The notes under the pieces are model-generated. The model made no database searches. It was not told the DNA's origin and was given only the letters and a program-made list of their open reading frames with translations. A stretch of 38,593 bases of DNA from a virus. Taxonomy: Duplodnaviria; Heunggongvirae; Uroviricota; Caudoviricetes. The first letter of the stretch is position 1; the number at the start of each line of letters is the position of its first letter. A program made the position numbers and the translations under genes. Positions 1,106-38,304 of the stretch are shown here, in pieces. The DNA is taken from the IMG/VR virus record IMGVR_UViG_2917865565_000005, positions 1 through 38,593 of that record. One strand, given 5' to 3'.

Positions 1106-2878
1106 TCATACGTCAGGGGTAATCCAGTCGACTAAAGCCTCAATACTTTCGAAATCTGCACAGATATCTGAAAGAGGTTGTGTATCTGCTTTTGTTTTGA
1201 AATCAGCCCATACTGATTCATTTTTTTCTGTAAGACCCAAATGGTTTTCTATCGAACCGTTTAGCCAAATCCAAATATTTGCATTTCTCAGTTTTGCGGC
1301 TAATGATGACAAAAATTCTCTGGCGCCGGGCTTTTGAGACATAAGAGCAAATGCTTCAGCTGCGGTAGTGTTACTACCCTTTGTAGGCAAACCGGATCCA
1401 TCGAGAGTGCATTCTCCATTAGCATGCATACTTCTCAAGATTTCTTTTAGTCGTAAAATATCCTCGTCATTATGTTCTAAGAAGTTGTTCCTTATTGCAC
1501 CGCGGAACGCAAAATCTAAATCAACAATTGCTTTTGTAGGTATATCCATTGAATTTAGAATTTGCATCGTTTTAGATATACTTTCAACGGACCCTGTTTC
1601 AATTAGTGCTATTTGCATCTGACCTAATGTTTTATTTTTAACTTTGTTAAAAAATAAATGGGAGCAGAGTAGTCTCTGTTTTACCTTCTGTTAGTATTAC
1701 ATTGTTAGCAAATAAAACTTTTGACGACTGTGTTAATGAAAATAAATGGGTTGCTTGTGCTGGTCGTTGTTCGATTACTTTATTGACTGCTTCTTTTAAT
1801 GTTAATCTGCAATGAGTGCCACGCTGACTGTTTTTTCTGATTAATACAGTGTCTTTTGCTAAGTCAGAGGTAATCATTTGAGATGAATGGGTAGAGAAAA
1901 TTATTTGATATCCATGATGAGATAGTGTTTTTAGAGATTCTCTAATTTGTTCGATAGCAAATGGGTGAAGATATAACTCAGGTTCATCTATTAACAGTAG
2001 AGTAGTTGTTTTAATATCATCACCGTTGGTTATATCAGCTAAATGTCTTATTAGAGCCATCTGAATCGAACGCTGTGTGCCATGACCATAAGAAGAACAG
2101 TCACGAGCAATTCCGGGAAATGAATCTTCATATACTTTTACAGTTCCTGATTTAAATATATCCTTGAAGTCAGGGAGTTCGAAGTGTAGTTTTAAACTTA
2201 TCCCTGGGAAGAAATCAGCAACTTTACTACTTATTGAATTATCAATATCATTGAGGTCCGATATTCGTTTATTACCGGTTGCAGTCATTCTTCTGTTAAC
2301 GGCATTTAAATGGCTTAGTATCCTTTGAGTGTGCTTCTCTTCTATTTTGCAACTCAATTCTGCCAGCAACTTACCTATTGTAGTACCTGTTTTTGATTTT
2401 GAAGAATCATCCGCTGCATTTTCCATTGCACCTATACGTATTGGATCTGGAAATAAAGCTTTTATCGCATTCTCAATACCCGTTGGTGATGTCCTGAATT
2501 CGTTATTTTCTGGGTTTTTAATTAATAACCTGACGTCTTTTGCACTTTGAGCACCAACAATCTGTTGACGCTTAAATATCAATACCCCATCAATAATGTA
2601 GGGTGAAATTCTAGTTCTGTTTTCTTCTGTTAAAGCTGACAAAATATCTTCAGTAATACCCTTAACTGTACCTATAACTTCTATAGGGTTATCTGGATTA
2701 GTATAATCATCAGAGGACAAAAGTTTTTTTCTTAAAAAGCCATTCAATAGCATTTAAAATCGTTGACTTACCTGCATTGTTGTAACCTATTAAAGGCGTG
2801 AATGAAGAAAAAATTGATATCAATATCTTTGCAAGATCTAAAGTTTTTTATAGAAATCTTTGAAAGATGATGATTCAT
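1106..2878 (-). pseudogene. old: OLD-family ATPase-TOPRIM nuclease (P2 Old-like); reading frame broken at three homopolymer runs in this sequence, probably intact in reality
   Basis: Minus-strand reading from ATG 2878 (SD GGAGGAG 6 nt upstream): 'MNHHLSKISIKNFRSC', Walker A 'LIGYNNAGKSTILNAIEW', Walker B-like 'LLLIDEPELYLHP', TOPRIM 'VILTEGKTE' then 'AIVDLD' about 45 aa later. These lie in successive frames joined at A6 2808-2813, T7 2724-2730 (or A5 2734-2738) and A6 1649-1654; removing one base at each gives about 589 codons. ORF-track pieces are 1647..2753 and 1106..1618. Confidence 0.7.
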
Positions 2879-2921
2879 TTTAGACTCCTCCAGTAAATAT
2901 TTAAAAGTAATGCCTGCAATG

Positions 2922-3860
2922 TTATTGTATTGTTAAGATGATGCTGGCTATAATTTGAATATCCTCAATGGAACACTCAAAATCCTTACTCCCACCAGAA
3001 ACAAGAATTTTGTTCTTAGGTAAACGAGTTAACTCTTTTAAAGATAACTCATTGTCAATTCCTACTAACCATTTTCCATCTCTAATTAGGTGAAATTCTT
3101 TATCACATATGACATGTTTTTCTCCATTGCTTACAAACATCAAACTGCTGGTTTCTTGCTTCGGAAGTAGACACCGATCCATGGATAAAAAACCTGACTC
3201 GACAAGCTCGCCATTGACCAAATTGAACTTATTTAAAATCACAGTGTTTTCTTTTTGTGAACCATTTGGCGTTTCGATTCCTGTAACTAGCCAGGTGAGG
3301 TCCGCTTTGGTTTCTAATGCGCATTTAATCACCCAATCCGCAGGGAAAGAATCTCGCATGTATCGTGTGGCTAATGTGCTTTTTGAAATACCAAGGTGAT
3401 CGGCTAAGGCTTGGCGGGTTTTAAACCCGTAAGCATTAACAATCCTCTCTATCGCGGCTTTTCCTCCGTTAGTAAGCTCAATGTGATTCTCAATGTGGCG
3501 CTTTAAGGATGATTGATGAGCGTTGCTGTTAAACCCCTCATGTGGGACTGTTTCATCATGTTGTTCCACATAAGGGGGGAAACTTTCTTCTGCATTGTTA
3601 GAACCAAAGGCCAGCCATTCTAGGGATGCGCCAGTTTCCATTGAACATATAACAACCCAATCAGCAGGGAAGGTATCGCGTGCATATCTATTAGCCATTG
3701 TACTTTGTGAAATACCAAGATGCTTACAGAAGGCTTGGCGTGATTTGAAACCATAGGCCTTGAGTATCCTCTCAATGACTTTTTGCCCTCCACGATTCTG
3801 CATGACCATAGCTTTCAGACTATCTTCGATATGGCGAAATGTGATTTTTTGAGTTGACAT
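2922..3860 (-). CDS. cI: CI-type immunity repressor (186 CI-like) with tandemly duplicated N-terminal HTH domain
   Basis: 312 aa; two copies of a 186-CI-like N-terminal domain ('ERILKAYGFKSRQAFCKHLGISQSTMANRYARDTFPADWVVICSMETGASLEWL' and 'ERIVNAYGFKTRQALADHLGISKSTLATRYMRDSFPADWVIKCALETKADLTWL') followed by a C-terminal domain; divergent from the apl-cII operon. Confidence 0.7.
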   Translation of the reverse strand: MSTQKITFRHIEDSLKAMVMQNRGGQKVIERILKAYGFKSRQAFCKHLGISQSTMANRYARDTFPADWVVICSMETGASLEWLAFGSNNAEESFPPYVEQHDETVPHEGFNSNAHQSSLKRHIENHIELTNGGKAAIERIVNAYGFKTRQALADHLGISKSTLATRYMRDSFPADWVIKCALETKADLTWLVTGIETPNGSQKENTVILNKFNLVNGELVESGFLSMDRCLLPKQETSSLMFVSNGEKHVICDKEFHLIRDGKWLVGIDNELSLKELTRLPKNKILVSGGSKDFECSIEDIQIIASIILTIQ

Positions 3861-3947
3861 ATTCTTTATGTGAACCTATTCTCCGTTTTGTGATGTTTTG
3901 TCACGATTAATACCGGCTCACCACAAGCCAATAGGAGATGTTGCATC
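3861..3947. promoter_or_regulatory. cI / apl intergenic switch region (expected lytic and lysogenic promoters and operators)
   Basis: 87-bp gap between divergent cI and apl starts; direct repeat TTTTGTGA / TTTTGTCA at about 3878-3900; position by analogy to the 186/P2 switch. Promoters not mapped. Confidence 0.4.
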
Positions 3948-4169
3948 ATGACCCCTAACATTTCAATAACTCTGAATACGCCACACGTCACAATTGAGCG
4001 TTATAGCGAACTTACTGGTCTTTCTATCGACACCATCAACGATATGCTGGCTGATGGTCGCATCCCTCGCCATCGCCTTCGGAAAGACAAGAAAAGAGAA
4101 AAGGTAATGATCAACCTTGCTGCTCTTACCGTTGATGCACTTACTGATTGCAATGTTGTATTCAACTAG
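3948..4169 (+). CDS. apl: Apl/Cox-like small HTH excisionase / transcriptional regulator
   Basis: 73-aa ORF, first gene of the rightward early operon, directly upstream of cII; HTH-like '[24 protein letters not shown]'; SD AGGAG 3933-3937. Confidence 0.5.
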
Positions 4170-4201
4170 TTCCATTTTGGGGTGCATCAGGAGTGTCGAC
4201 T

Positions 4202-4711: not shown

Positions 4712-4718
4712 GGTGCTT

Positions 4719-5349: not shown

Positions 5350-5431
5350 TGATGATTCCTTCTAGCTATCAATACGTTGGTAATAGATCATATCAAAAAT
5401 TTTTTTAGTAGATGTGTTGTGGGATGCATAA

Positions 5432-5773: not shown

Positions 5774-5834
5774 CCAACTAATGAAATTCATGGCGTAAAC
5801 CCGCCGGGCATCCCTTTATCTAAATTCAGGAGAA

Positions 5835-9566: not shown

Positions 9567-9636
9567 TTACGCTGGTTAACAATTCGTGCTCTTAATAATA
9601 CCAGGCATATCAGGCTGATGAGCGTAAAAAAAACGT

Positions 9637-9720: not shown

Positions 9721-9910
9721 ATGCAGGACTATTTTTTGGAGTCTTTGAAGCTCCAGCGCATTGATTTTTTTTCTTAAGCTTGTAGCGGCTAGTGAGTGTA
9801 GTGATGAAGAGAAGGGACTGGCCCTGCAGTGGGTTTCTGAACTGACAGATGAACTCATGGCAAAAATCAGAACCCACGAATACAACCGCTCAATGGATGT
9901 CATCAGTTGA
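9721..9910 (+). CDS. N-terminal portion of a Tum-like SOS-inducible antirepressor (frame broken at a T8 run)
   Basis: ATG 9721 with SD GGAGG 9712-9716; as given it stops after 18 codons (9721..9777); removing one T from T8 (9765-9772) extends it to TGA 9908-9910. Confidence 0.4.
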
Positions 9911-11163: not shown

Positions 11164-12313
11164 ATGAAGAAGTTAACTGCGAGACAAAGAGAGATTGACG
11201 TAAAACGCTCGATAAAGTTACGACAAGGGCGTGCTAAAGTTAGAAAAAAAGGTAAATCATTTCACTATAATGTTGAATGGCGTAAGGCTAACTATTGGAT
11301 TGAAGAACAATCAAAAAATGGATTAGATGTACAATTTGTAAGTAAAAAAAAGAAAGGGTTAATTCTAACTTTACCTTCTGAAATGAATTTTTCTACACAC
11401 TACGATGTTACTGTTCAGCATATTAATGCGATTCGAATGTTATCAGAGAGAAAAGGATTGCCTAATGCAGGTTATCAATTAGCATCTGTTAATTTTTTGT
11501 AATTTGAAGAAAATATCGACATCTGCAGCTCTTGTGTTAACTGCAGAGTTATCTAAATGGGATGATGCGATTAGGCAGAGGTTGACTCCAAAAATAGACG
11601 GTTGGGATAAAAATGTTCTACGTAATTTCTATGAATTGGGGTTCTTTGATTTATTCAAAAAAAGCAGGGATATAAAATTAAATTTTAATGATGAGTATTC
11701 AAAAATAAAAGGTAAGCGATTTGTAAAATATCTTAAAGGAAAGTGTGGGGAAATTAAGAAAACAAAAGTATTAAAAGAGGAGATTATTAAATTAGTTGGT
11801 GAGTCTATTGAAAAATGGACTTTCTTACATGGGGGCCTAAGTGAGGCTATTACCAATGTTTCTCATCATGCATATCCTTCTGATTGCGGATATAAAGAAT
11901 ATGATAAGAACTGGTATCTAACAGGATCTTATCATTTAGAAAGTAAGGAATTGAAGATAGTTTTTTATGATCAGGGTGTTGGTATCCCTAAAACTTTACC
12001 TGCATCAAAAGTTTGGGAAAAGGCATTAAATGTATTAGCATCAATTCCTGTATTGGAGCGATATCGTGATGAAGCACTCTTGAAAGCTGCGGTAGAGTTG
12101 GATAGGACAAGTACAGAAGAGGGAGATCGTGGTAAAGGCCTACAGGATCTACTTGAGTTTATTAAACAAAGAGAAAATGGTTATTTATCAATCATGAGCC
12201 TTAAGGGACTTTATAAACACTCAATGAATCAAGGTAATACAAAAATAAAAACTAAGAGTTTTGCATCCCCAATCTATGGTACACTAATAACTTGGAGTGT
12301 ATCTCTTGATTGA
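11164..12313 (+). CDS. GHKL (histidine-kinase-like ATPase fold) protein with basic N-terminal region; ORFs 11164..11502 and 11504..12313 are probably one gene
   Basis: Downstream ORF has N-box 'LSEAITNVSHHAY', G1 'VFYDQGVGIP', G2 'GDRGKGLQDL', G3 'YGTLITW'; it has no ATG or SD (starts at TTG one base after the upstream stop). Removing one T from T6 (11493-11498) fuses the two in frame. Confidence 0.6.
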
Positions 12314-12327
12314 GATGGAGGTTTAAT

Positions 12328-12735
12328 ATGAAAAATCTAGAAATTAATATAGGGAAAGAGTTTTCTTCTACTCCTTCAGGACGTTTCTATTCTGATATGA
12401 CAGATAGCAGCGGCGAACAGTTTAGAGAGGAGCTTTTATGGCCTCGCTTACAATTGCTTAAAGAAAAGCAAAAGATCGACATTATTTTGGATGATGACGT
12501 TGAAGGTTATGGTTCTTCTTTCCTCGTTGAAGGTTTTGCCGGTATAGTAAAATATGGATATATGGATAAACAACAACTATTAAGTAAACTTGAGTTAATT
12601 CAGAGAGATCCTGATTTTGCTTTGTTTAAGAGAAAAATAATACAATATATTAACGAGGCAGTGTTTGATTCAAAGGTTTATGAAAGTACCAAACCTATTT
12701 ATTTGTCTAAGTTGTTGACGCAAAAAAACACGTAA
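12328..12735 (+). CDS. Small STAS-like (anti-sigma-antagonist-like) protein
   Basis: 135 aa from ATG 12328 (SD GGAGG 12317-12321); 'KIDIILDDDVEGYGSSFLVEGFAGIVK' resembles the STAS phospho-serine loop region; stop overlaps the SD of the next gene. Confidence 0.5.
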   Translation: MKNLEINIGKEFSSTPSGRFYSDMTDSSGEQFREELLWPRLQLLKEKQKIDIILDDDVEGYGSSFLVEGFAGIVKYGYMDKQQLLSKLELIQRDPDFALFKRKIIQYINEAVFDSKVYESTKPIYLSKLLTQKNT

Positions 12736-12747
12736 GGAGTAAAGCAA

Positions 12748-13392
12748 ATGGAGCCCAATTATAATTATCATTATATGATGAGTAATAATGAGCTTTATTT
12801 TAGGGCGGGTTATGATGCTCAGCAATATGGGTTTGTTTTTTCTCATTCGGCTGTTGATGATGTCGACTTGGTACATATTATCAATGGTGGTTTTTCATCT
12901 GTTGCAGAAGCTATTAGTAACTCAGGAAACACCACACTTTCTGATGGGATTATACTTGCATTAGCAGGTGCGTTGAGTGCTTTTTTCTTTAATTTGATTC
13001 AAAAAGGAATTGACGCTAAGGCAAAACGTCTCACCAAATCTGGTGAAGCAATGTTATCCTTGATAAATGAATTGGAGGATATTGCAGTACGTTATTGGGT
13101 CAGAGGGCACGATTCATCTTGTGCTGATAATGAAAGCAATATTTGTGATGAGATTAATATCAAAGCCATGTTAATGACCTTGGATAAAAATATTAGGTTT
13201 ATGGTTGATAATTTACCGTTAAAAAACAAGTCTTTAAATAAAAATAAGCTGGAGAAATTTTCTTCTGATATTTATGATTTGGCATCTGGTGAAGATTTCG
13301 AAGCAGAGGTTAGGCCTCCCAATAAAACAAAGGCCTTTGCTATATCGAAAAAATGTAGTGAAGCAAAAGCCATCATTCTTGGTTTGATTTAA
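12748..13392 (+). CDS. Hypothetical protein with one hydrophobic (possible transmembrane) segment
   Basis: 214 aa; SD AAGGAG 12734-12739; hydrophobic stretch 'IILALAGALSAFFFNLI'; stop codon overlaps the portal gene stop on the other strand. Confidence 0.55.
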   Translation: MEPNYNYHYMMSNNELYFRAGYDAQQYGFVFSHSAVDDVDLVHIINGGFSSVAEAISNSGNTTLSDGIILALAGALSAFFFNLIQKGIDAKAKRLTKSGEAMLSLINELEDIAVRYWVRGHDSSCADNESNICDEINIKAMLMTLDKNIRFMVDNLPLKNKSLNKNKLEKFSSDIYDLASGEDFEAEVRPPNKTKAFAISKKCSEAKAIILGLI

Positions 13393-14417: not shown

Positions 14418-16180
14418 AAAATCTCCACAATATTACTGGTATTGGCGGACTCGCCCTGCAGTGGTTCGTTAAACAGTGCGTGCATTGTTGCCCAGGCCAG
14501 ATCGGCGTGGCTGGCTTCTTCGCTGCGGTTGGCTTCATAGGTCGGGCGGTTGCCGCTGGCGGTAGTGGCGCGACGGATTGCCATAAATGATTGCGCAATG
14601 TCGGTGTGTCCGGCGTCAAATTCCAGGCGGCGGTGACTGATAATGTCGTAGGCCTTGAGTACCAGGGCGTTTTTAACGTTGGGGTTGTAGACAAACTCCC
14701 GGACGGCAGGAAAGAACGCTTTCACGTTCTCGTAAACCCCGTGACCGACGCCGGTTGAGTCGATACCGATATAGGTCACGTTGTACTGTTCAGTCAGTTT
14801 TTTGATGGCGTCAGCCTGGGCGCGGAAGTCCATCCCGCGCCACTGGTGACGCTCAAGAATGCGGAACTTACCGCCCGGCACCGCTGGCGGAGCCACCACC
14901 ACGCATCCGGCACTGTCGCCGTTTTGCGTACCTTTCGCCGGGTCATATCCGATCCACACTTCGCGCCAGCCAAACGGACGCAGGGCCAGTGCATGAAAGT
15001 CGGTCCAGACTTCCCAACTGTCCACCATGCACGCCTGCAGCTCGCTGAGCGGGAACACGGACGCGAGATCGTCCACAAACTCGCACATCAGCAGGTTCTG
15101 GTATTCGTCCGGGCTGTACTCCATGCGCAGCTGGTCGAGGTCGAATAGGTTACAGCCGCCGCGCACCGCATCTTCCACGGTGACTATCTGGCGGTATTGC
15201 CCGTCTGCACACAGCAGGCCGGGAGCCAGATTGCTGTGGGACAGGTCGATGTCCACCTTATCGGCTTTGTTGCGCCCACGGTTGAACAGCGCACCGGACC
15301 AGAACGGATAAGCACTGTGGGTCAGGCTGGATGGTGTGGAAAAATAGGTCTGTCGCCATTTCTTGTGAATAGCCATACCGGAAGCCACTTTGCGCAGCTC
15401 CTGGAATTTCGGTATCCAGAAATATTCATCCAGATACAGGTTGCCGTGGTAACTCTGGGCCGTGCGGGCATTGGTGCCGAGGAAGTAAAGCGTGGCCCCG
15501 TTGGGAAGCACCATCGGATCGCCTTTCAGCTCCACCTCCACTTCTTTGGCGAAGTCGATGATGTACTGTTTAAAGACGTGGGCCTGTGCCTTACTGGCGG
15601 AAAGGAAAATCTGGTTACGTCCGGTAAGCAGGGCGTCAATCAGGGCTTCACGGGCAAAGTAAAAGGTCGCGCCGATCTGGCGTGACTTCAGCAGGTTGCG
15701 GATGCGGTTGGTTTTTCCGGCTTCCCACCAGTGGCGCTGGTAGTTGAACATGGAGGAATGGAAAATTTCTTCCAGCTTCTCAATCTGTTCATCGGTGAAA
15801 ACGTTCTTTTCCGGCTGACGGCGTGGGCCTTTGTTGCGGTTGGCGACGTTAGGGTTTAAGTCGGCTTCGTTGCCGCCATTGTTAAACTTGCCGATCCGCG
15901 CGTGGCGTTCCGACTGGCGCGCCAGCAGGTCAATCTCTTTGAAATCTTTCCCTTCTTTGTGCTCCTTCATAATGAGCTGGCAGTAGCGTGCGGCGGTGGT
16001 GAGCTGCATCTGATCCAGCGGCCCATAGTCACCCCACTTGTCGCGTTTTTTCCAGCTGTGAACGGTTGCAACTTTCTCGCCCAGCATTTCAGCAATGCGG
16101 GCTACGCGGTATCCCTGAAAGTACAGCAGCATGGCCTGCCGACGGGGATCGAGATCTGCGGGTGTCAGTGTGGTGTTCAT
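14414..16180 (-). CDS. P: Terminase large (ATPase) subunit gpP
   Basis: 588-aa ORF; P2 P-like length and position; overlaps Q by 4 nt. Confidence 0.9.
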   Translation of the reverse strand: MNTTLTPADLDPRRQAMLLYFQGYRVARIAEMLGEKVATVHSWKKRDKWGDYGPLDQMQLTTAARYCQLIMKEHKEGKDFKEIDLLARQSERHARIGKFNNGGNEADLNPNVANRNKGPRRQPEKNVFTDEQIEKLEEIFHSSMFNYQRHWWEAGKTNRIRNLLKSRQIGATFYFAREALIDALLTGRNQIFLSASKAQAHVFKQYIIDFAKEVEVELKGDPMVLPNGATLYFLGTNARTAQSYHGNLYLDEYFWIPKFQELRKVASGMAIHKKWRQTYFSTPSSLTHSAYPFWSGALFNRGRNKADKVDIDLSHSNLAPGLLCADGQYRQIVTVEDAVRGGCNLFDLDQLRMEYSPDEYQNLLMCEFVDDLASVFPLSELQACMVDSWEVWTDFHALALRPFGWREVWIGYDPAKGTQNGDSAGCVVVAPPAVPGGKFRILERHQWRGMDFRAQADAIKKLTEQYNVTYIGIDSTGVGHGVYENVKAFFPAVREFVYNPNVKNALVLKAYDIISHRRLEFDAGHTDIAQSFMAIRRATTASGNRPTYEANRSEEASHADLAWATMHALFNEPLQGESANTSNIVEIF

Positions 16181-19442: not shown

Positions 19443-19645
19443 TGAAAGTGCGTGCGCATCAGTATGACACGGTGGACGCGCTTTGCTGGCGTCATTACGG
19501 GCGCACGCAGGGTGTCACGGAGCAGGTACTGAAGGCAAATCCGGGGCTTGCCGAATACGGCCCCTTTTTACCTCACGGGCTGCAGGTGGAGCTCCCGGAC
19601 ATTCCGACCACCACCACCGTGCAGACCGTCCAGTTATGGGACTGA
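19442..19645 (+). CDS. X: Tail protein gpX
   Basis: 67 aa, same size and position as P2 X. Confidence 0.75.
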   Translation: MKVRAHQYDTVDALCWRHYGRTQGVTEQVLKANPGLAEYGPFLPHGLQVELPDIPTTTTVQTVQLWD

Positions 19646-19648
19646 ATT

Positions 19649-19864
19649 ATGACGCTTGAGCGAATCAGCGCCTTTATCACGTATTGCATCGCCGTCGTGC
19701 TGGCCTGGCTGGGCGATTTATCCATCAAGGATGCCTCAACGCTGGGCGGCCTGATGATCGGTGTGCTGATGCTGGCTATCAACTGGTACTACAAACACAA
19801 AGCCTACCAGCTTCTGCGCGACGGGCAGATCTCGCGGGAGGACTATGAATCCATCAATCGTTAA
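19649..19864 (+). CDS. Holin (two-TMD, pinholin-like)
   Basis: 71 aa with two hydrophobic helices ('ISAFITYCIAVVLAWLG', 'LGGLMIGVLMLAINWYY') and a charged C-terminus; immediately upstream of the endolysin. Confidence 0.6.
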   Translation: MTLERISAFITYCIAVVLAWLGDLSIKDASTLGGLMIGVLMLAINWYYKHKAYQLLRDGQISREDYESINR

Positions 19865-20360
19865 ACGCTGCCTTGTCGGGGCCGTGCTGGCTATTGCTGC
19901 CACGCTGCCGGGTTTTCAGCAGCTTCACACCTCCGTGGAGGGGCTGAAACTGATTGCCGATTACGAAGGCTGTCGTCTGCAGCCGTATCAGTGCAGCGCG
20001 GGTGTCTGGACCGACGGCATTGGTAATACGTCGGGCGTCATTCCCGGCAAAACTATTACGGAACGACAGGCAGCAGAAGGGCTGATCTCCAACGTGCTAC
20101 GTGTGGAGCGGGCGCTGGAAAGGTGTGTGAAGCAACAGCCGCCGCAGAAGGTGTATGACGCTACGGTGTCGTTTGCCTTCAACGTGGGGACGGGCAATGC
20201 CTGTAGTTCCACGCTGGTGAAATTGCTCAATCAGCGGCGCTGGGCGGATGCGTGCCGACAGTTGCCGCGCTGGGTTTATGTGAAAGGTGTTTTTAATCAG
20301 GGGCTGGATAACCGCCGTGCGCGGGAGATGGCCTGGTGCCTTAAAGGAGCTGGACTATGA
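19845..20360 (+). CDS. SAR-type endolysin (phage-21-like lysozyme)
   Basis: N-terminal weakly hydrophobic Gly/Ala-rich SAR segment 'CLVGAVLAIAATLPGF'; lysozyme motifs 'EGLKLIADYEG...GVWTDGIGNT' and 'FAFNVGTGNACSSTLVKLLNQ'. Confidence 0.85.
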   Translation: MNPSIVKRCLVGAVLAIAATLPGFQQLHTSVEGLKLIADYEGCRLQPYQCSAGVWTDGIGNTSGVIPGKTITERQAAEGLISNVLRVERALERCVKQQPPQKVYDATVSFAFNVGTGNACSSTLVKLLNQRRWADACRQLPRWVYVKGVFNQGLDNRRAREMAWCLKGAGL

Positions 20361-20785
20361 CACGTGCGCTGGCGGTAGTGGCGGCGCTGGCACTCGTTGC
20401 GCTGGTCTGGCAGTCGTGGCGGCTTAACAGCGCCAGCCACACCATCGAAACGCAGCGCGCGGCGCTGAAAAGTAAAGCGCACGAACTAACGAAGAAAAAT
20501 AGCCAGCTGATCAGTCTGTCCATTCTGGCTGAAACCAACAACCGGGAGCAGGCGCGGCTCTACGCCGAAGCAGAACAGACCAGTGCACTGCTGAGACAAC
20601 GACAACACCGGATCGAGGAACTGAAACGTGAGAACGAGGGTTTACGCCGCTGGGCTGATACTCCTTTGCCTGCTGACATTATCCGGCTGCGGGAACGTCC
20701 GACACTCACCGGAGGTGCAGCTTACCGTCAGTGGTTGTCCGCGAGTGACGCCGTGTCGGCTGGAGCAGGCAGCGCCGCGCACTAA
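20357..20785 (+). CDS. Rz-like inner-membrane spanin (LysB-like)
   Basis: 142 aa; N-terminal TM helix then coiled-coil-like periplasmic domain; follows the endolysin. Confidence 0.7.
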   Translation: MTRALAVVAALALVALVWQSWRLNSASHTIETQRAALKSKAHELTKKNSQLISLSILAETNNREQARLYAEAEQTSALLRQRQHRIEELKRENEGLRRWADTPLPADIIRLRERPTLTGGAAYRQWLSASDAVSAGAGSAAH

Positions 20786-21312: not shown

Positions 21313-21751
21313 ATTGCAGAAGGTGGACGACTGGCTGAGTGCCTTGCTGGCGAATCTGGAGCCAGCCGCAAGAAGCCTCATGATGCGCCAGCTGGCGCAG
21401 GAACTGCGCCGGACACAGCAGCAGAATATCAGGATGCAGCGCAATCCTGATGGCAGCAGTTATGAACCGCGCAGGGTAACAGCACGCAGCAAGAAGGGGC
21501 GCATCAAACGTCAGATGTTTACAAAGCTGCGCACCACAAAATACCTGAAAACTGCCGCCAGCGCCGATTCTGCCAGCGTACAGTTTGAAGGTAAGGTGCA
21601 GCGCATTGCCCGCGTTCATCACTACGGCCTGCGCGATCGCGTCAGTCGTAAGGGACCGGAGGTCCGTTACGCAGAGCGTCGTTTGTTAGGTATTAATGAT
21701 GACGTAGAATCCTTAACCCACGATGTATTATTGCGCTGGCTATCTAATTGA
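21305..21751 (+). CDS. S: Tail completion / virion morphogenesis protein gpS
   Basis: 148 aa, P2 S-like size and position. Confidence 0.8.
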   Translation: MAELQKVDDWLSALLANLEPAARSLMMRQLAQELRRTQQQNIRMQRNPDGSSYEPRRVTARSKKGRIKRQMFTKLRTTKYLKTAASADSASVQFEGKVQRIARVHHYGLRDRVSRKGPEVRYAERRLLGINDDVESLTHDVLLRWLSN

Positions 21752-22636
21752 TTGTTTACCAATCGATGGAGTTAAGTTTTTAGGCCTGAGGGCGAGAAAT
21801 GGTTCATAGTCTATCCATGAGTCCCAGTTAATTAATCCATCATCGAATCCTATATATTTCATTAATACTAAAGGTAAAAGTAAATTTAGATTTGAATAAT
21901 AATCACTTAATTTAATGATACTGCTTGGATCATCTTTCTTAATGTATCCAATATAATTTCCATTGTGGAATAGAGAGTTTCGAAGCGTGCAATAGTGAAT
22001 CACGTTTCTTTGTGGTACAGGGTTGCCTTCTTTAGATACATTAAAACCATAATCTTTTAAAACCTTTGTAATTATTTGTGGTGTATAACTAGATGTCGAC
22101 TCGTTATCGATATATCTGCACAGGGATTCTAATGCTGAGAAATTAAGGAAGTATTTAACATCTACATAGTCCATTCTTTCCCTAAAAGAAAATATAGACT
22201 TATAGAACGCAGTTCTAAAAGGGTTTTGATGAGAATTAATATTTCTATGAAGTTTATCCATCGCAAGCTCAATGAACGCTGAGCGACTCTTTTCAGAGAA
22301 GCAATCTTCAACAATTATTCCTAGTGATGACTTTCTTTTTGACTTCAATTTTAGTGGGAAATTATTATCTAACTTTTCAGGTGTTTCATGTTTCTCTAGG
22401 AAGTTTGATATGATTACATTTTTTTGTGTTCAATGAAACTTAAAACAGCTGAAAGATCATAAATTATTTGAGTGACGGTGTTTTCAGAAGCATGTGCGGG
22501 AGAGAAAAATCCACTTAATACATATTCGCTTCCATCGCATTTATTCTCTTTTAGTTCCTTAAAGGATTTGTAACGAGGTATCAGTGTCCCTCCTTTAAAA
22601 GTAAATTCTTTCGTGAAGCAATATCCATAGATACCG
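21740..22636 (-). pseudogene. AT-rich accessory gene inserted between S and V; hypothetical protein with HEPN-like R-x4-H motif; two ORFs separated at a T7 run
   Basis: Upstream piece from ATG 22636 (SD AAGGAG); downstream piece (21740..22348) has only a TTG start and no SD, but its frame is open back to the upstream stop; adding one base at T7 22419-22425 joins them (about 299 aa). 'CTLRNSLFHNGNY' contains R-N-x3-H. Confidence 0.4.
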
Positions 22637-22674
22637 ATTTGTGTCATCTGTAACTCCTTTGCGCGGATAAACAT

Positions 22675-24570: not shown

Positions 24571-25168
24571 TTTGCTGCCGCCGGGTTCAACACCACTGGA
24601 GCGCCGACTGGCGCAAACCTGCAGCGGGATTTCTGATCTGCAGGTGCCACTGCGTGACCTGTGGGATCCGGCTACCTGTCCGGTCAGTTTCCTGCCTTAT
24701 CTCGCCTGGGCGTTCTCTGTGGATCGCTGGGACGAGGACTGGACGGAAAGCGTCAAACGCCAGGTGGTGAAGGATGCTTTTTATATTCATCAGCACAAAG
24801 GAACCACCAGTGCCGTGCGGCGGGTGGTGGAGCCGTTCGGCTTTCTGATCCGCATTATTGAGTGGTGGCAGACCGGAGAAACACCAGGCACGTTTCGCCT
24901 GGATATCGGCGTGCAGGACCAGGGCATCACCGAAGATACCTATCTGGAACTTGAGCGACTGATAAGCGATGCCAAACCATGTAGCCGTCACATGATCGGC
25001 ATGTCCATCAATCTGCAGACCAGCGGCCTGCATTGGGTGGGAGCCGCCAGCTATCTTGGCGAAGAAATCACGATCTATCCGTATATCAACGAAACAATTA
25101 TTTCCGGCGGCACCGCGCATGAAGGCGGGGCGGTCCACGTTATTGACACAGTGAGAGTGAATCCATGA
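24563..25168 (+). CDS. I: Baseplate / tail protein gpI
   Basis: 201 aa following J as in P2. Confidence 0.85.
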   Translation: MNSLLPPGSTPLERRLAQTCSGISDLQVPLRDLWDPATCPVSFLPYLAWAFSVDRWDEDWTESVKRQVVKDAFYIHQHKGTTSAVRRVVEPFGFLIRIIEWWQTGETPGTFRLDIGVQDQGITEDTYLELERLISDAKPCSRHMIGMSINLQTSGLHWVGAASYLGEEITIYPYINETIISGGTAHEGGAVHVIDTVRVNP

Positions 25169-26790
25169 GCACAAAATTTTATACCCTGCTGACGGAGATT
25201 GGTGCGGCGAAACTTGCCAGCGCCACTGCACTTGGTGTGCCGCTTAAAATTACTCATATGGCGGTGGGGGATGGTGGTGGAGCATTGCCGACGCCGGACG
25301 CAAAGCAGACGGCACTGGTAAATGAGAAACGCCGGGCTGCGCTGAATATGCTCTATATCGACCCGCAGAACAGCAGCCAGATTATTGCTGAACAGGTGAT
25401 CCCCGAAAACGAGGGCGGTTGGTGGATCCGTGAAGTGGGCCTGTTTGATGAATCCGGGGCATTGATTGCCGTGGGCAACTGCCCGGAAAGCTATAAGCCG
25501 CAACTGGCTGAAGGCAGCGGGCGTACCCAGACCGTGCGCATGGTGCTGATTACCAGCAGTACGGACAATATCATCCTGAAAATCGACCCTGCTGTAGTGC
25601 TGGCAACCCGCAAGTATGTGGATGACAAGGCACTGGAGCTGAAGGTGTACGTGGATGACCTGATGGCAAAACATCTTGCCGCACAGGACCCGCATTCACA
25701 GTATGCACCCAAAGAAAGTCCAACGTTTACCGGAACCCCCAAAGCGCCAACGCCAGCGGCGGGGAATAATACCACGCAGGTTGCGACCACCGCATTTGTT
25801 CAGGCGGCACTGACGGCTCTTATTAATGGTGCGCCAGCCACGCTGGACACGCTGAAAGAAATAGCCGCAGCCATAAACAATGATCCGAAATTCAGCACCA
25901 CTATTAACAATGCGCTGGCACTGAAAGCACCACTGTCGAGTCCGGCACTCAGCGGAACGCCGACAGCCCCCACGGCGGCGCAATCGGTCAACAATACACA
26001 GATTGCCACCACGGCATTTGTGAAATCGGCGATTGCGGCAATGGTGGGTTCTGCACCTGCGGCACTGGATACACTGAACGAACTGGCGGCGGCGCTGGGG
26101 AATGACCCGAACTTTGCCACGACAATAACTAACGCCCTTGCGGGGAAGCAGCCAAAGGATGCTACTTTAACGGCGTTGGCAGGGCTTTCTACATCAAAAG
26201 ATAAACTCCCTTATTTTACAGGGGAAGATCAGGCTGCCTTAACTGCACTGACAAGTGTTGGGCGTGCCATTCTTAGCAAGCCCAGCGCACAGGGCGTTCT
26301 TGATTATCTTGGTTTAGGGGATGGCTCTGCATTACCTGTTGGTGTCCCTGTTCCGTGGCCTTCTGCCATTCCACCGACAGGCTGGCTGAAATGCAACGGA
26401 GCGGCTTTTTCGGCAGAAGAATATCCCAAACTGGCAAAGGTTTATCCGACAAATAAATTGCCTGATTTACGTGGTGAGTTTATTCGCGGCTGGGATGATG
26501 GGCGTGGTATTGATGCTGGACGTGCTTTATTAAGCCTTCAGGCTGGAATGCTGGAAAAACACCGCCATATGGTTGTAGCCAACGATGGGTATGATTCAAA
26601 AGAGGAATGGGAACTGGCGGCAATCTTCAGAAAAGCATATACGCAAGGCCGGGGGCTTGATGCTGCCGATGCCGGAGGGACTCTGATTCCATCACCAACG
26701 CTACATACACGAGGGAGTATTGGTAACACAGGTGGGAGCGAAACCCGTCCACGAAATATTGCATTTAACTATATCGTGAGAGCTGCATAA
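25165..26790 (+). CDS. H: Tail fibre protein gpH
   Basis: 541 aa; conserved P2-H-like N-terminus; two tandem internal repeats containing 'NNTQ(I/V)ATTAFV'; C-terminal tail-collar-like region 'LRGEFIRGWDDGRGID...ETRPRNIAFNYIVR'. Confidence 0.85.
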   Translation: MSTKFYTLLTEIGAAKLASATALGVPLKITHMAVGDGGGALPTPDAKQTALVNEKRRAALNMLYIDPQNSSQIIAEQVIPENEGGWWIREVGLFDESGALIAVGNCPESYKPQLAEGSGRTQTVRMVLITSSTDNIILKIDPAVVLATRKYVDDKALELKVYVDDLMAKHLAAQDPHSQYAPKESPTFTGTPKAPTPAAGNNTTQVATTAFVQAALTALINGAPATLDTLKEIAAAINNDPKFSTTINNALALKAPLSSPALSGTPTAPTAAQSVNNTQIATTAFVKSAIAAMVGSAPAALDTLNELAAALGNDPNFATTITNALAGKQPKDATLTALAGLSTSKDKLPYFTGEDQAALTALTSVGRAILSKPSAQGVLDYLGLGDGSALPVGVPVPWPSAIPPTGWLKCNGAAFSAEEYPKLAKVYPTNKLPDLRGEFIRGWDDGRGIDAGRALLSLQAGMLEKHRHMVVANDGYDSKEEWELAAIFRKAYTQGRGLDAADAGGTLIPSPTLHTRGSIGNTGGSETRPRNIAFNYIVRAA

Positions 26791-27390
26791 TGGATAAAGC
26801 CGTATTAAATAGCGAACTTATTGCCACGAAGGCGGGGAATATTACCGTCTATAACTATGATGGTGAAACACGGGAATATATTTCTGAATCAACTGAATAT
26901 CTTGCTGTTGGCGTCGGTATTCCCGCACATTCGTGTTTAGATGCTCCTGGTTCATATAAGTCAGGTTATGTGTCCTGTCGAACTCTGGATTTGAGATCAT
27001 GGGAATATGTCCCTGACCACCGTGGTGAAACGGTCTATAACACATTGAACGGTAAACCGATAGAAATAAAAACCATTGGTGAATACCCGGAAAATGTGAC
27101 CACTCTTGCACCATCCACACCATATGATGTTTGGAATGGGAATGAATGGGTTGTGGACCTACAGGCGAAAAAAAAACGCATTAGAGAAAGTTTTTATAAC
27201 AGAAAGAGATATGGCGATTAATGAAGCTCTGAATTACATATCTCCTTTACAGAGTGAATTATTATTAGGGAGTATTTCGGAGCGAAATAAAGAAATTTTG
27301 CAGGTATGGTTAAACTATATTAATGAGTTAAAGGAAGCGGTATTTGTTTCTGATAAAGCTTCCTTATTGCCTGCTAAGCCAGAATGTTAG
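26790..27390 (+). pseudogene. G: Tail fibre assembly protein gpG; frame broken at an A9 run, probably intact in reality
   Basis: ORF 26790..27221 ends abnormally ('...QAKKKRIRESFYNRKRYGD*'); the conserved C-terminal part ('AINEALNYISPLQ...KEILQVWLNYINELKEA') is in ORF 27106..27390; one A fewer in A9 (27168-27176) joins them (about 200 aa). Confidence 0.75.
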
Positions 27391-27410: not shown

Positions 27411-28401
27411 TTATTGGCTGGCTTTTGAGAGCAATATACTTTGTATGTGTGAAAATAATCGGTCCATGATTCTGGAAGAAATTGTACTGCTTAATAAGTA
27501 ACATATAGCAAAGCTGATTATTACTGTACCTACCAATATGAACGGCCATGACAACATCTTATTTAGGTAAGTGGAAATGTATAATATAAATAGACCATGT
27601 AACAGATATATACTAAGACTATTTTTTCCAAACCGCTCTAAAATTACACAGGTGGGTTTTAGCTGCATAAGAGCTAATACAAAAGCCGGAACCGCTGCGT
27701 AGTTGACTACTTTGTATAACATAAGTACAACTATAGATTTATCAAAATAAGAGAATGGAAAAGCGCCGTAGAGAAATATGGTAGGTGCAAGTATCGATAA
27801 AATCACTAATGCAATAACTGCTGAGAATAAAATGAGGTATATCGTATTTTTGTCGTGCCTTATACGTAATAAATTATTCCGATAAAATAACGCTCCTATA
27901 ATGAAGTAGGGTAGAAAATTAATTGTCCTCATAATGGATAGAGTCTGCGAACTGAAATCAATGAATTGAAATGCGAAGCTTATAAGTAAAGAAAGACAAA
28001 GAGGGTAACGGAAGGTGAATAGAACAGAAGCAATTATTTGCCAGAAAAAAAAGGCTTAAAAGATACCACATTATCCAATAAGGCGCGCCAATCTTAAGAT
28101 AACCAGAAATACTTCCTGTCAGCAAGAAGTTGATAAATTCATAAATAAAATTAAAAACAATGAATGGAACAAGAATATGTTTGCTTAATTTGTATATGTC
28201 AAGATTGCTACATCCCTTGCTAAGAAAACCAGAAATTAATACAAAGGCGGGCATGTGAAATGTGTAAATGAAATCATATATGTATTTCACTTGTTCATGT
28301 TCTACGCCACCGCCAAGTATGTGCGCCATAACCACCAGGAAAATTAACGCGCCTTTGAGCGTATCGATAGTGTTATCACGATTATCGATCTGTTGTGCCA
28401 C
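27411..28401 (-). pseudogene. Acyltransferase family 3 (O-antigen O-acetyltransferase-like) membrane protein; frame broken at an A8 run
   Basis: N-terminal motif 'NRDNTIDTLKGALIFLVVMAHIL' and 'FHMPAFVLISGFL'; multiple TM helices; two ORFs (27958..28407 and 27411..27932) join if A8 (28045-28052) is A7; GTG start 28401 with SD AAGGA (TTG 28407 in the ORF track). Confidence 0.7.
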
Positions 28402-30339: not shown

Positions 30340-30642
30340 ATGAGCGATAAGCAGACTGAAAAGACCATTCAACTGGACACCCCCATCATGCGCGGTAAAA
30401 CAGAAATTACCGAAATTGTGCTGCGTAAACCGCAGTCCGGTGCGCTGCGCGGTACACGCCTGCAGGCCATTATGGATATGGATGTGAACGCGATGATGAC
30501 CGTGATCCCCCGCATTTCCAGTCCGGCACTGACTGCACAGGAAATTGCAGAGATGGACCCAGCAGACCTCACTGCCATGTCGGTTGAGGTTGTCACTTTT
30601 TTGTTGAAGAAGTCGGTGCTTGCCGGTTTACCGACAGCCTGA
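30340..30642 (+). CDS. E: Tail assembly chaperone gpE
   Basis: 100-aa ORF before the tape-measure gene; contains slippery TTTTTTG at 30598-30604. Confidence 0.8.
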   Translation: MSDKQTEKTIQLDTPIMRGKTEITEIVLRKPQSGALRGTRLQAIMDMDVNAMMTVIPRISSPALTAQEIAEMDPADLTAMSVEVVTFLLKKSVLAGLPTA

Positions 30643-34328: not shown

Positions 34329-35425
34329 ATTTCAGCTCTGAACTGCTTAACAAAGGTAACAAAACTCCCGCATTCAGCATCAGTATTGAGGGCAGGGATA
34401 TCACCACTGTGCTGGATAACCGCCTGATGAGTCTGACGCTGACGGACAATCGGGGCTTTGAAGCGGACCAGCTTGATCTGGAACTGGATGATGCCGACGG
34501 AAAAATCGTGCTGCCGCGCCGTGGTGCGGTCATTACGCTGGCGCTGGGCTGGAAGGGGCAGCCGCTTTTCCCAAAAGGGGCATTCACGGTGGATGAGATT
34601 GAACACACTGGCGCACCGGACCGCCTGACCATCCGGGCGCGAAGTGCTGATTTTCGGGAAACGCTGAATACCCGCCGTGAAAAATCGTGGCACAAGACCA
34701 CGGTCGGGGAAGTGGTGAAGGAAATAGCTGCGCGTCACAAACTGAAGATGGCACTGGGTAAAGACCTGTCGGATAAAACCGTGGATCATATAGACCAGAC
34801 TAATGAGAGTGACGGCAGTTTTCTGATGCGGCTGGCGCGCCAGTACGGTGCTATTGCGTCGGTGAAAAATAGCAATCTGTTATTCATCCGGCAGGGACAG
34901 GGTAAAAGTGCCAGCGGTAAACCACTGCCGGTGATCACTATCACACGCAAGGACGGCGACAGTCACCGCTTTACCCTGGCAGATCGCGGAGCCTATACGG
35001 GCGTAATTGCCAGCTGGTTGCATACCCGCGAACCCACCAAGAAAGAAAGCACTACAGTGAAGCGTAAGCGCAGGACTAAGAAGCAGAAGAAAGAGCCAGA
35101 AGCGAAGCAGGGCGATTACCTTGTGGGGACGGATGAAAATGTGCTGGTACTTAATCGCACTTATGCCACCCGGAGCAACGCCGAACGGGCCGCGAAAATG
35201 CAGTGGGAACGACTGCAACGCGGTGTTGCGTCATTCTCGCTACAACTGGCGGAAGGTCGGGCAGATCTCTACACGGAAATGCCTGTGAAAGTCAGTGGCT
35301 TTAAACAGCCGATAGATGATGCGGAATGGACCATTACCACCCTGACGCATACAGTCAGCCCGGATAACGGTTTTACGACCAGTCTGGAGCTTGAAGTGAA
35401 GATTGATGATTTCGAAATGGAATGA
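34325..35425 (+). CDS. D: Tail / late control protein gpD
   Basis: 366 aa; 'LSLTLTDNRGFEADQLDLELDD' and 'VKVSGFK' match P2 D as recalled. Confidence 0.85.
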   Translation: MNFSSELLNKGNKTPAFSISIEGRDITTVLDNRLMSLTLTDNRGFEADQLDLELDDADGKIVLPRRGAVITLALGWKGQPLFPKGAFTVDEIEHTGAPDRLTIRARSADFRETLNTRREKSWHKTTVGEVVKEIAARHKLKMALGKDLSDKTVDHIDQTNESDGSFLMRLARQYGAIASVKNSNLLFIRQGQGKSASGKPLPVITITRKDGDSHRFTLADRGAYTGVIASWLHTREPTKKESTTVKRKRRTKKQKKEPEAKQGDYLVGTDENVLVLNRTYATRSNAERAAKMQWERLQRGVASFSLQLAEGRADLYTEMPVKVSGFKQPIDDAEWTITTLTHTVSPDNGFTTSLELEVKIDDFEME

Positions 35426-35515
35426 TTCTTCGCAATGGAGAACTTTTAGGTTTTCAAAATGGAATAATGCGGTATCGTTATTGTGAATTTAGCAAAAATG
35501 GGGAGAACTCGAAAA

Positions 35516-35734
35516 ATGATGATTTGCCCACTGTGTGGAAGTGCCGCCCATACTCGCAGCAGTTTTCAGGTATCTTCATTGACCAAAGAGCGTTACAACC
35601 AGTGCCAGAACATTAACTGCAGCCATACTTTTGTTACCCATGAAACTTTTGTTCGTTCGATTGCAATGCCAAAAGAGTCAAATCCGGTTCAGCCGCATCC
35701 AATGAAATCAGGACAGGTGGCGCTCTCTCTTTGA
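35516..35734 (+). CDS. ogr: Ogr/Delta-type zinc-finger late transcription activator
   Basis: 'MMICPLCGSAAHTRSS...ERYNQCQNINCSHTF' gives the Cys4 finger CPLC...CQNxNC as in P2 Ogr; ORF track begins at an upstream GTG (35483). Confidence 0.8.
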   Translation: MMICPLCGSAAHTRSSFQVSSLTKERYNQCQNINCSHTFVTHETFVRSIAMPKESNPVQPHPMKSGQVALSL

Positions 35735-35814
35735 CGCTGCCGCCAATTTGTCGCCATCATTAAAAAACAGTGCTTCTAACATCATGATTTTAAAGAGCAT
35801 AAATTTTAGGCAAC

Positions 35815-35857
35815 AAAAAACCCATCAACCTTGAACCAAAATGGCGGGGTTGATGGG
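35815..35857 (-). terminator. Hairpin plus T-tract (minus-strand sense), about 115 nt downstream of the ybjL stop
   Basis: Perfect 10-bp inverted repeat CCCATCAACC (35821-30) / GGTTGATGGG (35848-57), followed on the minus strand by T6 (complement of 35815-20); large 17-nt loop. Confidence 0.4.
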
Positions 35858-35970
35858 CTCCACAAAATGGGGACATCAAAGAAAAGCAGTGGCACTAATT
35901 AAGACTGATGCCCCAAAGAAAAGTTCGCCGATTGTACAAAAAAAATTTCATTTTCAGGGCAACTTCAGTT

Positions 35971-37658
35971 TTATCCGAGTCCTGGCCATACCATGACAAT
36001 GATTGTCCCGGCCAGCGTTAGCAGTACGTTAGCTATTGCATAAGTGCCCGCATAACCTAAGGCTGGGATGTTACTGCGTGCGGTGTCGCTGATGATCTCC
36101 ATTGCCGGAGCACAAGTACGCGCGCCCATCATCGCGCCGAACAGGAGTGCGCGGTTCATACGCAGTACATAAGCGCCGAACAGGAAGCAGATAACCACCG
36201 GCACCAGACTGACAATCAATCCGGCAATTAACATCTGACCACCGATCGCGCCCAGGCCGTTATTAATGCCGCTACCGGCGCTTAAACCAACGCCTGCCAT
36301 AAACACCATCAAGCCGAACTCTTTCACCATGCTTAACGCCCCCTGCGGAATGTAACCGAAGGTCGGGTGGTTAGCGCGCATAAAGCCCAACATAATGCCG
36401 GCGAATAACAAGCCAGCAGCGTTACCCATGCCAAAGCTAAATGTACTGAACTGGAAGGTAATCATCCCGATCATCAGGCCAATAACAAAGAACGCGCAGA
36501 ATGCCAGCAGGTCTGTGACCTGGCTGTGAATCGAGATAAAGCCGATGCGGTCAGCAATGGTTTTCACGCGACGGGCATCGCCGCTCACCTGTAAAACATC
36601 ACCTTTATTAAGCACAACGTTGTCATCAATTGGCATCTCAATCTGGCTGCGGATGACGCGGTTAAGGAAGCAACCGTGATCGGTCAACTTTAGTTGTGCC
36701 AGACGTTTACCTACCGCGTTATGGTTTTTGACGACGACCTCTTCAGTGACGATACGCATGTCGAGAAGGTCACGATCAAAAACTTCTTTACCGTTACGGA
36801 AGCTGGGATCGAGGCGGGCGTGGGCGTCTGGATATCCCACTAACGCTATCTCATCGCCCATTTGCAGTACGGCGTCGCCATCTGGATTTGCCAGAATCCC
36901 GTTACGACGAATACGTTCAATGTAGCAACCGGTTTGACGATAAATACCCAATTCACGCAGATTTTTGCCGTCGGTCCAGGCCACCAGCTCCGGGCCGACA
37001 CGGTAGGCGCGGATCACCGGCAAATAAACTTTGCGGCTGGCATCGGTGTCCAGGCCACGTTCGCGAGCGATTTGTTGGGCGCTGGTCTGTAAATCCTGAT
37101 GTTGCAACTTCGGTAAATAACGTGCACCGACAATTAAACTCACCAGGCCAATTAAATAAGTTAACGCATACCCAAGGCTTAGATTATCCAGTGCTGTGGA
37201 GAGCTGTCCGCTTTCCATACCGGAATGGCGTAATGTGTCGCCAGCACCGACCAGAACCGGTGTCGATGTCATGGAGCCAGCCAACATACCGGCCGTCAGA
37301 CCGATATCCCAGCCAAACAGCTTACCCAACCCTAAGGCGATCGCCAGCGCACTGCTAACCATCACCAGAGCTAACATTAGGTAATTTTTCCCATCGCGGA
37401 AAAAAATGGAAAAAAAAGTTGGGTCCGGCTTCGACCCCGACGCAGAAAATAAACAACATAAAGCCAAGATTAAGCGCGTCGGTGTTAATGCTGAAATGTT
37501 GTTGCCCTAATAGTAACGATACGACTAAAAACGCCAATGGAATTACCCAGTTGGATTGAACCAAGTCGTAATTTTCCTAGACATAGTCCAAGCGCAAGGA
37601 CTACAAATAATAACAGAATGTAATTCCCATTTAACAATTCGGCGACGTTTATATTCAC
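35971..37658 (-). pseudogene. ybjL: Putative transport protein YbjL (host); reading frame broken twice at homopolymers in this sequence
   Basis: Three frame segments encode one contiguous YbjL-like protein; joints at A8 37410-37417 (gives '...[14 protein letters not shown]' versus the other frame '...[14 protein letters not shown]') and A5 37527-37531; span is 562 codons plus 2 extra bases; start GTG 37656-37658. Confidence 0.85.
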
Positions 37659-37925
37659 GGAGACTAACTTCTTGTTTACGAGTAAGCTGTTGAAAGAAAT
37701 GGTAATTTAAGATAATGTTTTTACCTGAAATCAGGGCGCGAATTCATTCAGCGCACTTAAGCAATAGTAAAGAAACAATATATTTTACTAGTGTAATCAC
37801 ATTAAGTACCAACGGCTATAAAAATTGCGTTGGCCTATATTAGCATGGAATGCGAAGCGGCTTTATCTTACTGAACGCCATAGTGGCGAAAATGTGTTCG
37901 ATAGAGGCAGTGTCAGGAGGAGCGA

Positions 37926-38304
37926 GTGAAACATAAACAACGTTGGGCGGGGGCAATCTGCTGTTTTGTCCTCTTCATTGTAGTGTGCCTGTTCCTGGCG
38001 ACGCAAATGAAAGGCGCTTTTCGGGCTGCCGGGCATCCTGAAATCGGCTTGCTGTTTTTCATTCTTCCTGGGGCGGTTGCCAGCTTTTTTTTCGCAGCGT
38101 AGAGAAGTCCTTAAACCGCTGTTTGGCGCAATGCTGGCGGCACCGTGTTCTATGTTAATTATGCGTCTGTTTTTTTCACCAACACGCTCATTCTGGCAAG
38201 AGCTGGCATGGTTATTGAGCGCCGTCTTCTGGTGTGCGTTGGGGGCGTTGTGTTTCTTGTTTATTAGTAGTTTGTTCAAGTCACAGCACAGAAAAAATCA
38301 ATAA
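37926..38304 (+). pseudogene. ybjM: Inner membrane protein YbjM (host); frame broken at a T8 run
   Basis: GTG 37926 reads 'VKHKQRWAGAICCFVLFIVVCLFLATQMKGAFRAAGHPEIGLLFFILPGAVASFFFAA*'; remainder is in the +1 frame (ORF 38077..38304 '...SQRREVLKPLFGAMLAAPCSMLIMR...'); joint at T8 38085-38092. Confidence 0.8.

Follow-up and report, generated by a model that had tools for sequence, protein, structure and literature searches.

Assemblies built from Ion Torrent reads are known to carry insertions and deletions (indels) in homopolymers, with adenine runs most affected, a mean affected run of 5.5 bases and a maximum of 9, and Ion Torrent genomes are over-represented among those excluded from RefSeq for "many frameshifted proteins" (PMC12046094). 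Mismatch-repair-deficient lines of Escherichia coli accumulate about seven substitutions per small indel (6.02 vs. 0.85 per coding sequence, CDS; PMC8510543). Here we analyze a stretch of 38,593 nucleotides (nt) of viral DNA, IMG/VR record IMGVR_UViG_2917865565_000005, referred to below as the window. It holds a P2/186-like prophage followed by the host genes ybjL, ybjM, and grxA, and many of its genes change reading frame at runs of A or T. The initial annotation of the window, made from the sequence alone, attributed these frame changes to over-called homopolymers rather than to pseudogenes and counted at least nine affected genes. Our comparisons bear this out: nine genes are restored after repair, and the extra bases are almost certainly consensus errors of an Ion Torrent draft genome, not a biological feature.

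Exact-protein matches located the window, at 100% identity, in contig PDIJ01000005.1 (GCA_004745205.1). The parent record, PDIJ00000000, is the genome of Escherichia sp. E2562, which was sequenced on the flow-based Ion Torrent platform with single-end reads at ~50x; the assemblers were MIRA 4.0.2 and SPAdes 3.6.0, contigs were merged, and gaps were closed manually (PMC6639607). In this first E2562 assembly (PDIJ01), genes carry CQJ28_ tags and the contig measures 592,185 bp. Similarity searches placed the ybjL-ybjM-grxA host genes at ~91% identity to those of E. coli. The nearest species representatives were Escherichia sp. E1V33 (96.4%) and E. whittamii (95.2%), and the organism therefore belongs to Escherichia cryptic clade II.

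Three references were used for comparison. The main one was contig SRR8835204_1 of the Logan assembly of the public run SRR8835204, which covers the whole window (loci L089, L102, and L086). Window positions 19571-20764 were bridged by a look-up of the tail-fibre protein, while a lysozyme look-up returned E. coli genomes only, this protein being too common. The second reference was the Logan assembly of SRR6148323, which is fragmented and covers 14 of the sites described below. The third was a second GenBank assembly labelled Escherichia sp. E2562, with FEK43_ locus tags and a 423,630-bp contig. For ybjL and ybjM the comparison set consisted of E. coli, Escherichia sp. E1V33, E. whittamii, lineage L008, E. 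albertii, and E. ruysiae. The prophage was compared with E. coli prophages ~96-97% identical to it, including L005; against these, the single-base differences at the old and orf62 sites of the initial annotation already proved to be bases gained by the window in A/T runs.

The window and SRR8835204_1 differ in 15 places. The window is the longer sequence in every one of them, and there are no substitutions: when 16 bases are removed at the 15 sites, the window becomes identical to SRR8835204_1 over all 38,577 nt. Fourteen of the events add a single base to a run of A (nine runs) or T (five runs). The fifteenth is an added GT adjoining a T7 run, the sole exception to a pattern of pure run-length change. 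Beyond the window, another 8.1 kb of flanking DNA is identical to the SRR8835204 assembly. The SRR6148323 contigs likewise show no substitutions relative to the window. They carry the short run at 12 of the 14 covered sites; the two exceptions, where the run is as long as in the window, are the intergenic sites 9626 and 35938. Twelve of the 15 events fall within genes, and as a result nine genes look split or truncated.

All 12 runs listed in the initial annotation are present in the sequence at the positions given there, and 11 of them are sites of extra bases when compared with SRR8835204. The twelfth, A5 at 9862-9866, has this length in all references. It had been assigned to a "tum-like" gene; Fels-2, other P2-like phages, and E. 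coli prophages all have orf62 and the DinI-like gene as two distinct genes. The list was also incomplete, as comparison with SRR8835204 revealed four further sites (5400, 9626, 12722, and 35938). The T7 run at 22419-22425, in the gene inserted between S and V, had been singled out as an exception to the rule of one extra base. An exception it is; the run itself, however, is correct and the surplus consists of the GT just after it. Apart from this one GT insertion, both the direction of the changes and their restriction to A and T stand as first described.

The events are far from randomly placed. Runs of A or T of at least four bases account for only 4.9% of the sequence, yet 14 of the 15 events lie in them (p = 7e-18), and all 15 events are insertions (p = 6e-5). 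The over-call rate climbs with the true length of the run (Fisher p = 9e-9): one of 271 A/T runs of length four was over-called (0.4%), three of 93 of length five (3.2%), three of 40 of length six (7.5%), six of 13 of length seven (46%), and one of two of length eight (50%). The window contains no G/C run of seven bases or more and just 23 of five or more, so that no special cause is needed for the finding that only A/T runs are affected.

Once the extra bases are deleted, each coding event lies within one long open reading frame (ORF). The nine restored genes and the 15 sites are listed in Table 1. For six of the restored proteins (Old, the acyltransferase, the tail-fibre assembly protein, the 301-amino acid (aa) protein, orf62, and the 382-aa protein) profile matches align unbroken across the shift sites. 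Repaired Old aligns with the PADLOC Old profile over the full length (E 4e-234). The product of orf62 matches phrog_698, a family of unknown function, over residues 1-62 of 63 (E 4e-38), and its exact sequence occurs on at least 1000 contigs. The match of the 382-aa protein to phrog_3364 (residues 67-381) runs through the shift, which lies near residue 110; the exact protein is found on 135 contigs, and its 269-aa fragment, TGC20138.1, in E2562 only. Likewise, the exact 137-aa DUF4325 protein is found on 153 contigs and the 135-aa version, TGC20139.1, in E2562 only. The 301-aa protein matches phrog_4373 (unknown function) over positions 1-283 of 283 (E 9e-112). In the tail-fibre assembly protein the Caudo_TAP match, residues 78-181, spans the shift, and the repaired acyltransferase matches Acyl_transf_3 over residues 11-303 (E 6e-21). 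The exact 561-aa YbjL was found in other clade II strains, and the exact 125-aa YbjM on 32 contigs of unclassified Escherichia.

The extra bases were not reproduced when a strain of the same name was assembled independently. In the FEK43_ assembly of E2562 the Old (TLI83831.1), 301-aa (TLI83802.1), tail-fibre assembly (TLI83796.1), and acyltransferase (TLI83795.1) proteins are identical to our repaired translations, and the genes are also intact in the SRR8835204 contig, a run whose platform and strain label are unverified. Public data thus supplied the resequencing check that the initial annotation had proposed. Three truncated products with CQJ28_ tags, TGC20138.1, TGC20139.1, and the 147-aa acyltransferase fragment TGC20159.1, come from the first assembly only. 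The alignment of the ybjL-ybjM region to reference genomes, also proposed at the outset, gave the same answer: the extra bases at 37410, 37527, and 38085 are absent from E. coli and the five other Escherichia lineages. At 38085 the E1V33 and E. coli sequences differ from the window, yet they too are one base shorter. Around ybjM the region also has true lineage indels relative to E. coli, at 37718, 37889, and 38312-38314. They are common to clade II genomes or other species, and all are intergenic. The real, shared indels thus avoid coding sequence and the extra bases of the window do not, as expected if selection acts on real changes and not on errors.

Table 1. Extra-base sites, restored genes, and reference features of the window. 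Sites give the run as it stands in the window and the run length in the references.
Feature	Position	Strand	Remarks
A6, true A5	1649-1654		old, frameshift 1 of 3; A5 in SRR8835204, SRR6148323, and E. coli prophage L005
T7, true T6	2724-2730		old, frameshift 2 of 3; T6 in SRR8835204 and L005
A6, true A5	2808-2813		old, frameshift 3 of 3; A5 in both Logan assemblies and L005
T7, true T6	5400-5406		intergenic; T6 in both Logan assemblies and L005
A8 vs. A7	9626-9633		intergenic, gene A/orf62; A7 in SRR8835204 and L005, A8 in SRR6148323
T8, true T7	9765-9772		orf62 frameshift; T7 in both Logan assemblies and L005
T6, true T5	11493-11498		382-aa cargo gene frameshift; T5 in both Logan assemblies
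A7, true A6	12722-12728		alters C-terminus of DUF4325 gene; A6 in both Logan assemblies
Extra GT (TGTG vs. TG)	22426-22427		directly after correct T7 22419-22425; +2 shift in 301-aa gene; absent from both Logan assemblies
A9, true A8	27168-27176		tail-fibre assembly gene frameshift; A8 in both Logan assemblies
A8, true A7	28045-28052		acyltransferase frameshift; A7 in both Logan assemblies
A8 vs. A7	35938-35945		intergenic, ogr/ybjL; A7 in SRR8835204, E. coli, and five other Escherichia species, A8 in SRR6148323
A8, true A7	37410-37417		ybjL frameshift; A7 in both Logan assemblies, E. coli, and five other Escherichia species
A5, true A4	37527-37531		ybjL frameshift; A4 in both Logan assemblies, E. 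coli, and five other Escherichia species
T8, one base too many	38085-38092		ybjM frameshift; T7 in both Logan assemblies, E. whittamii, L008, E. albertii, and E. ruysiae
int	1-1032	-	prophage start
old, OLD-family ATPase/TOPRIM nuclease	1106-2878	-	at least 3 ORFs in window; 589 aa repaired
orf62, small conserved gene upstream of DinI-like gene	9721-9910	+	broken in window; 62 aa repaired; 62 aa called in Logan contigs
382-aa cargo gene	11164-12313	+	112 aa + 269 aa in window; 382 aa repaired
DUF4325 (STAS-like) cargo gene	12328-12742	+	137 aa repaired; 135 aa with wrong C-terminus in GenBank record
301-aa gene, between tail genes S and V	21740-22647	-	split in window; 301 aa in both Logan contigs
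Tail-fibre assembly gene (P2 G-like)	26790-27390	+	199 aa repaired; uncalled on GenBank contig in collection
Acyltransferase, Acyl_transf_3 family	27411-28401	-	329 aa repaired
P2 E/E+E' programmed -1 frameshift heptamer TTTTTTG	30597-30603	+	identical in all assemblies; real T6 run, not over-called
ybjL, aspartate:alanine antiporter family	35971-37658	-	561 aa repaired; uncalled on GenBank contig in collection
ybjM	37926-38304	+	125 aa repaired; uncalled on GenBank contig in collection

In flow-based sequencing a homopolymer gives one signal, whose size is converted into a run length; the longer the run, the less certain this estimate. The E2562 consensus took the longer call at 14 A/T runs and, in addition, gained a spurious GT after the T7 run. 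Several observations weigh against this explanation. In a published comparison of Ion Torrent and Illumina data for Listeria, deletions were dominant (77% vs. 12%; PMC12046094), and 15 insertions out of 15 therefore need an assembler-specific cause. We infer that this cause is the consensus rule of the assembler, in which a base is kept over a gap, rather than the raw base-calls alone. The added GT at 22426 is no change of run length at all; it may have been produced by phasing (incomplete extension) after the long run. The 8.1-kb host flank is free of errors where ~3.5 were predicted at the rates of the window (p ~0.03), and the errors are therefore patchy and not evenly spread. At 9626 and 35938 the run is long in SRR6148323 too, which makes these sites either real variants or the same systematic miscall. 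Lastly, the evidence consists of assemblies, not reads, and the platform of SRR8835204 and the strain behind either SRR run are unverified. A literature search on where the second E2562 assembly and the SRR runs came from found the accession only in the original announcement, and a follow-up paper on clade II reports PacBio sequencing of other strains only, with E2562 absent from it.

The SRR6148323 assembly has flaws of its own. Its contigs break exactly at the T run at 2724, one ending at 2722 and the next starting at 2734. Contig _153 (loci L103 and L106) carries two single-base deletions, CC to C at 14815 and a lost G at 24984, which split the terminase gene and tail gene I, respectively; both genes are intact in the window. 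This behaviour fits a noisy, indel-prone read set, whose platform and strain are unverified. Given these deletions and the break at 2724-2730, automated re-assemblies of such reads evidently carry different errors.

Four alternatives to consensus error were weighed. The first concerns a small part of the sites only. A few tracts could really vary in length within the lineage, the candidates being the intergenic runs at 9626 and 35938 and the A7/A8 tract of the acyltransferase gene. The site at 9626 lies upstream of orf62 and the DinI-like gene, and it is A8 in GenBank and SRR6148323 and A7 in SRR8835204; the same split is seen at 35938. If real, such tracts would be possible slippage-prone switches and the culture a mixture. 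We consider this very unlikely.

According to the second alternative, the extra bases are real mutations of the first-sequenced E2562 culture, due either to slippage in a mismatch-repair-deficient mutator or to decay of the prophage and its neighbours into pseudogenes. The rate of replication slippage also climbs steeply with run length (PMC8510543), as the over-calls do here, and the cargo genes of prophages are often dispensable. A mutator, however, leaves substitutions behind. At the ratio measured in mismatch-repair-deficient lines ~85 of them are expected to accompany 12 coding indels, and comparison with two other data sets revealed none, either in the 38.6 kb or in the 8.1 kb of flanks. 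A mutator is also expected to produce indels in both directions, whereas only insertions were found. If the density in the window were typical, the genome would carry ~1,900 indels and many essential genes would be expected to be inactivated. Neither a mutator nor decay accounts for the second assembly under the same strain name, in which the genes are intact: pseudogenes should show their lesions in every data set of the strain, and the old, 301-aa, tail-fibre assembly, and acyltransferase genes do not. Nor was coding sequence spared, though the real shared indels of the region are all intergenic. An origin by mutator or decay is highly improbable and, for practical purposes, excluded.

Less probable still is the third alternative, that the tracts are hypervariable in vivo, as phase-variable contingency loci, and that each assembly caught another state of a mixed culture. 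In some bacteria, homopolymer tracts make genes for acyltransferases and surface modification phase-variable, and two intergenic runs do differ between the two Logan assemblies. Yet the housekeeping genes ybjL and ybjM behave in the same way as the cargo genes, and so do short runs (A4, A5, and T5) well below the lengths at which slippage reaches a useful rate. The run lengths in ybjL and ybjM are constant across six Escherichia lineages, which is not the pattern of contingency loci. Moreover, the change is one-way, from n to n+1, and confined to the Ion Torrent consensus, and the known error mode of the platform accounts for everything.

The last alternative, that full-length proteins are still made because ribosomes are programmed to change frame, or transcription slips, at the A/T runs, has next to no probability: A8, A9, and T8 runs can promote polymerase slippage and the window has one true programmed frameshift, that of P2 E/E+E' (Table 1), but the homologues and the other assembly of the same strain are single-frame with no conserved two-frame architecture, and the extra base is absent from independent data.

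With the consensus errors removed, the underlying biology is ordinary: an intact P2/186-like prophage beside ybjL and ybjM, both intact as well. According to the ORF listing and similarity searches, the prophage runs from int to ogr, in the order int, old, CI repressor, replication gene A, head and tail genes, D, and ogr. It occupies positions 1-35800 and is inserted between rcdA (ybjK) and ybjL, its left flank being represented by positions 1-2853 of the SRR8835204 locus L089. Related P2-like prophages of E. coli also use the rcdA/ybjL site, and in E. coli B and BL21 a prophage remnant consisting of ogr and partial tail genes is found there.

Two of the restored genes and a third gene form a cargo block at 11164-13392 on the plus strand. 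The block occupies a P2 accessory hotspot, with the DinI/ASCH genes on one side and the portal gene on the other. The block encodes the 382-aa protein, the 137-aa DUF4325 STAS-like protein, and a 214-aa protein for which no matches were found. The exact proteins of the block recur on ~135-150 Escherichia contigs. The labels "GHKL" for the 382-aa gene and "tum-like" for orf62, used in the initial annotation, found little backing: orf62 belongs with phrog_698, and the 382-aa protein gave sub-threshold matches to HATPase_c_2, RsbW, and SpoIIAB (E 0.02-0.05; Pfam and NCBIfam). The pairing of the 382-aa protein with DUF4325 resembles that of an anti-sigma/anti-anti-sigma partner-switching pair, and the block is possibly an uncharacterised defence or regulatory module. 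A PADLOC search of the cargo genes recovered Old only and gave nothing for the three-gene block or the 301-aa protein, and a search of PDB sequences gave no match for the 382-aa and 301-aa proteins.

The 301-aa gene lies on the opposite strand between S and V, a position it also has in P2-like prophages of E. coli. One member of its cluster is named "Apea-like HEPN domain-containing protein" in UniRef. The acyltransferase is O-acetyltransferase-like and its gene is located between the tail-fibre assembly and sheath genes, where E. coli relatives have an invertase and another tail-fibre cassette. A role in lysogenic conversion, through acetylation of surface polysaccharide, is possible for this gene.

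The window thus offers no biological novelty; it matters for the annotation of this record and for analyses of pseudogenes and gene content that draw on it. Within 38.6 kb, at least nine genes are under-called or split in the GenBank record. As the initial annotation had warned, the collection's gene calls for PDIJ01000005.1 are affected: ybjL, ybjM, and the tail-fibre assembly gene are missing, and four others (old and the 382-aa, 301-aa, and acyltransferase genes) are in pieces. Truncated products have entered the protein databases (RefSeq and UniRef) as E2562-specific singletons: TGC20138.1 (269 aa)/WP_135406270.1 (259 aa), TGC20139.1/WP_135406271.1 (135 aa), and TGC20159.1/WP_135406281.1 (147 aa). 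Counts of pseudogenes, gene presence or absence, and functional divergence that use the project's 16 clade II genomes, all from Ion Torrent data, could be distorted, and claims of a "split gene" or "novel short ORF" in the window that rest on these runs are to be discounted.

Compared with known systems, the window most closely resembles the homopolymer miscalls of Ion Torrent and 454 sequencing. In common with these, it derives from Ion Torrent data, its deviations are changes of run length, longer runs are miscalled more often and A runs most of all, CDSs are split or frameshifted, and independent data do not repeat the errors. It differs in that all 15 events are over-calls, whereas published errors go in both directions with deletions the commoner, and in that one of the 15 inserts GT next to a run. 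Slippage in mismatch-repair-deficient or decaying bacteria likewise yields length-dependent single-base indels at mononucleotide runs; the window, however, has neither substitutions nor deletions, its changes do not recur when the same strain is assembled again, and conserved genes are hit too densely to be plausible. The programmed -1 frameshift of P2 E/E+E', which is itself present in the window, also joins two frames at a T-rich slippery run. It is conserved, the same in all assemblies, and lies outside the reported runs, whereas the genes at the reported runs have single-frame homologues.

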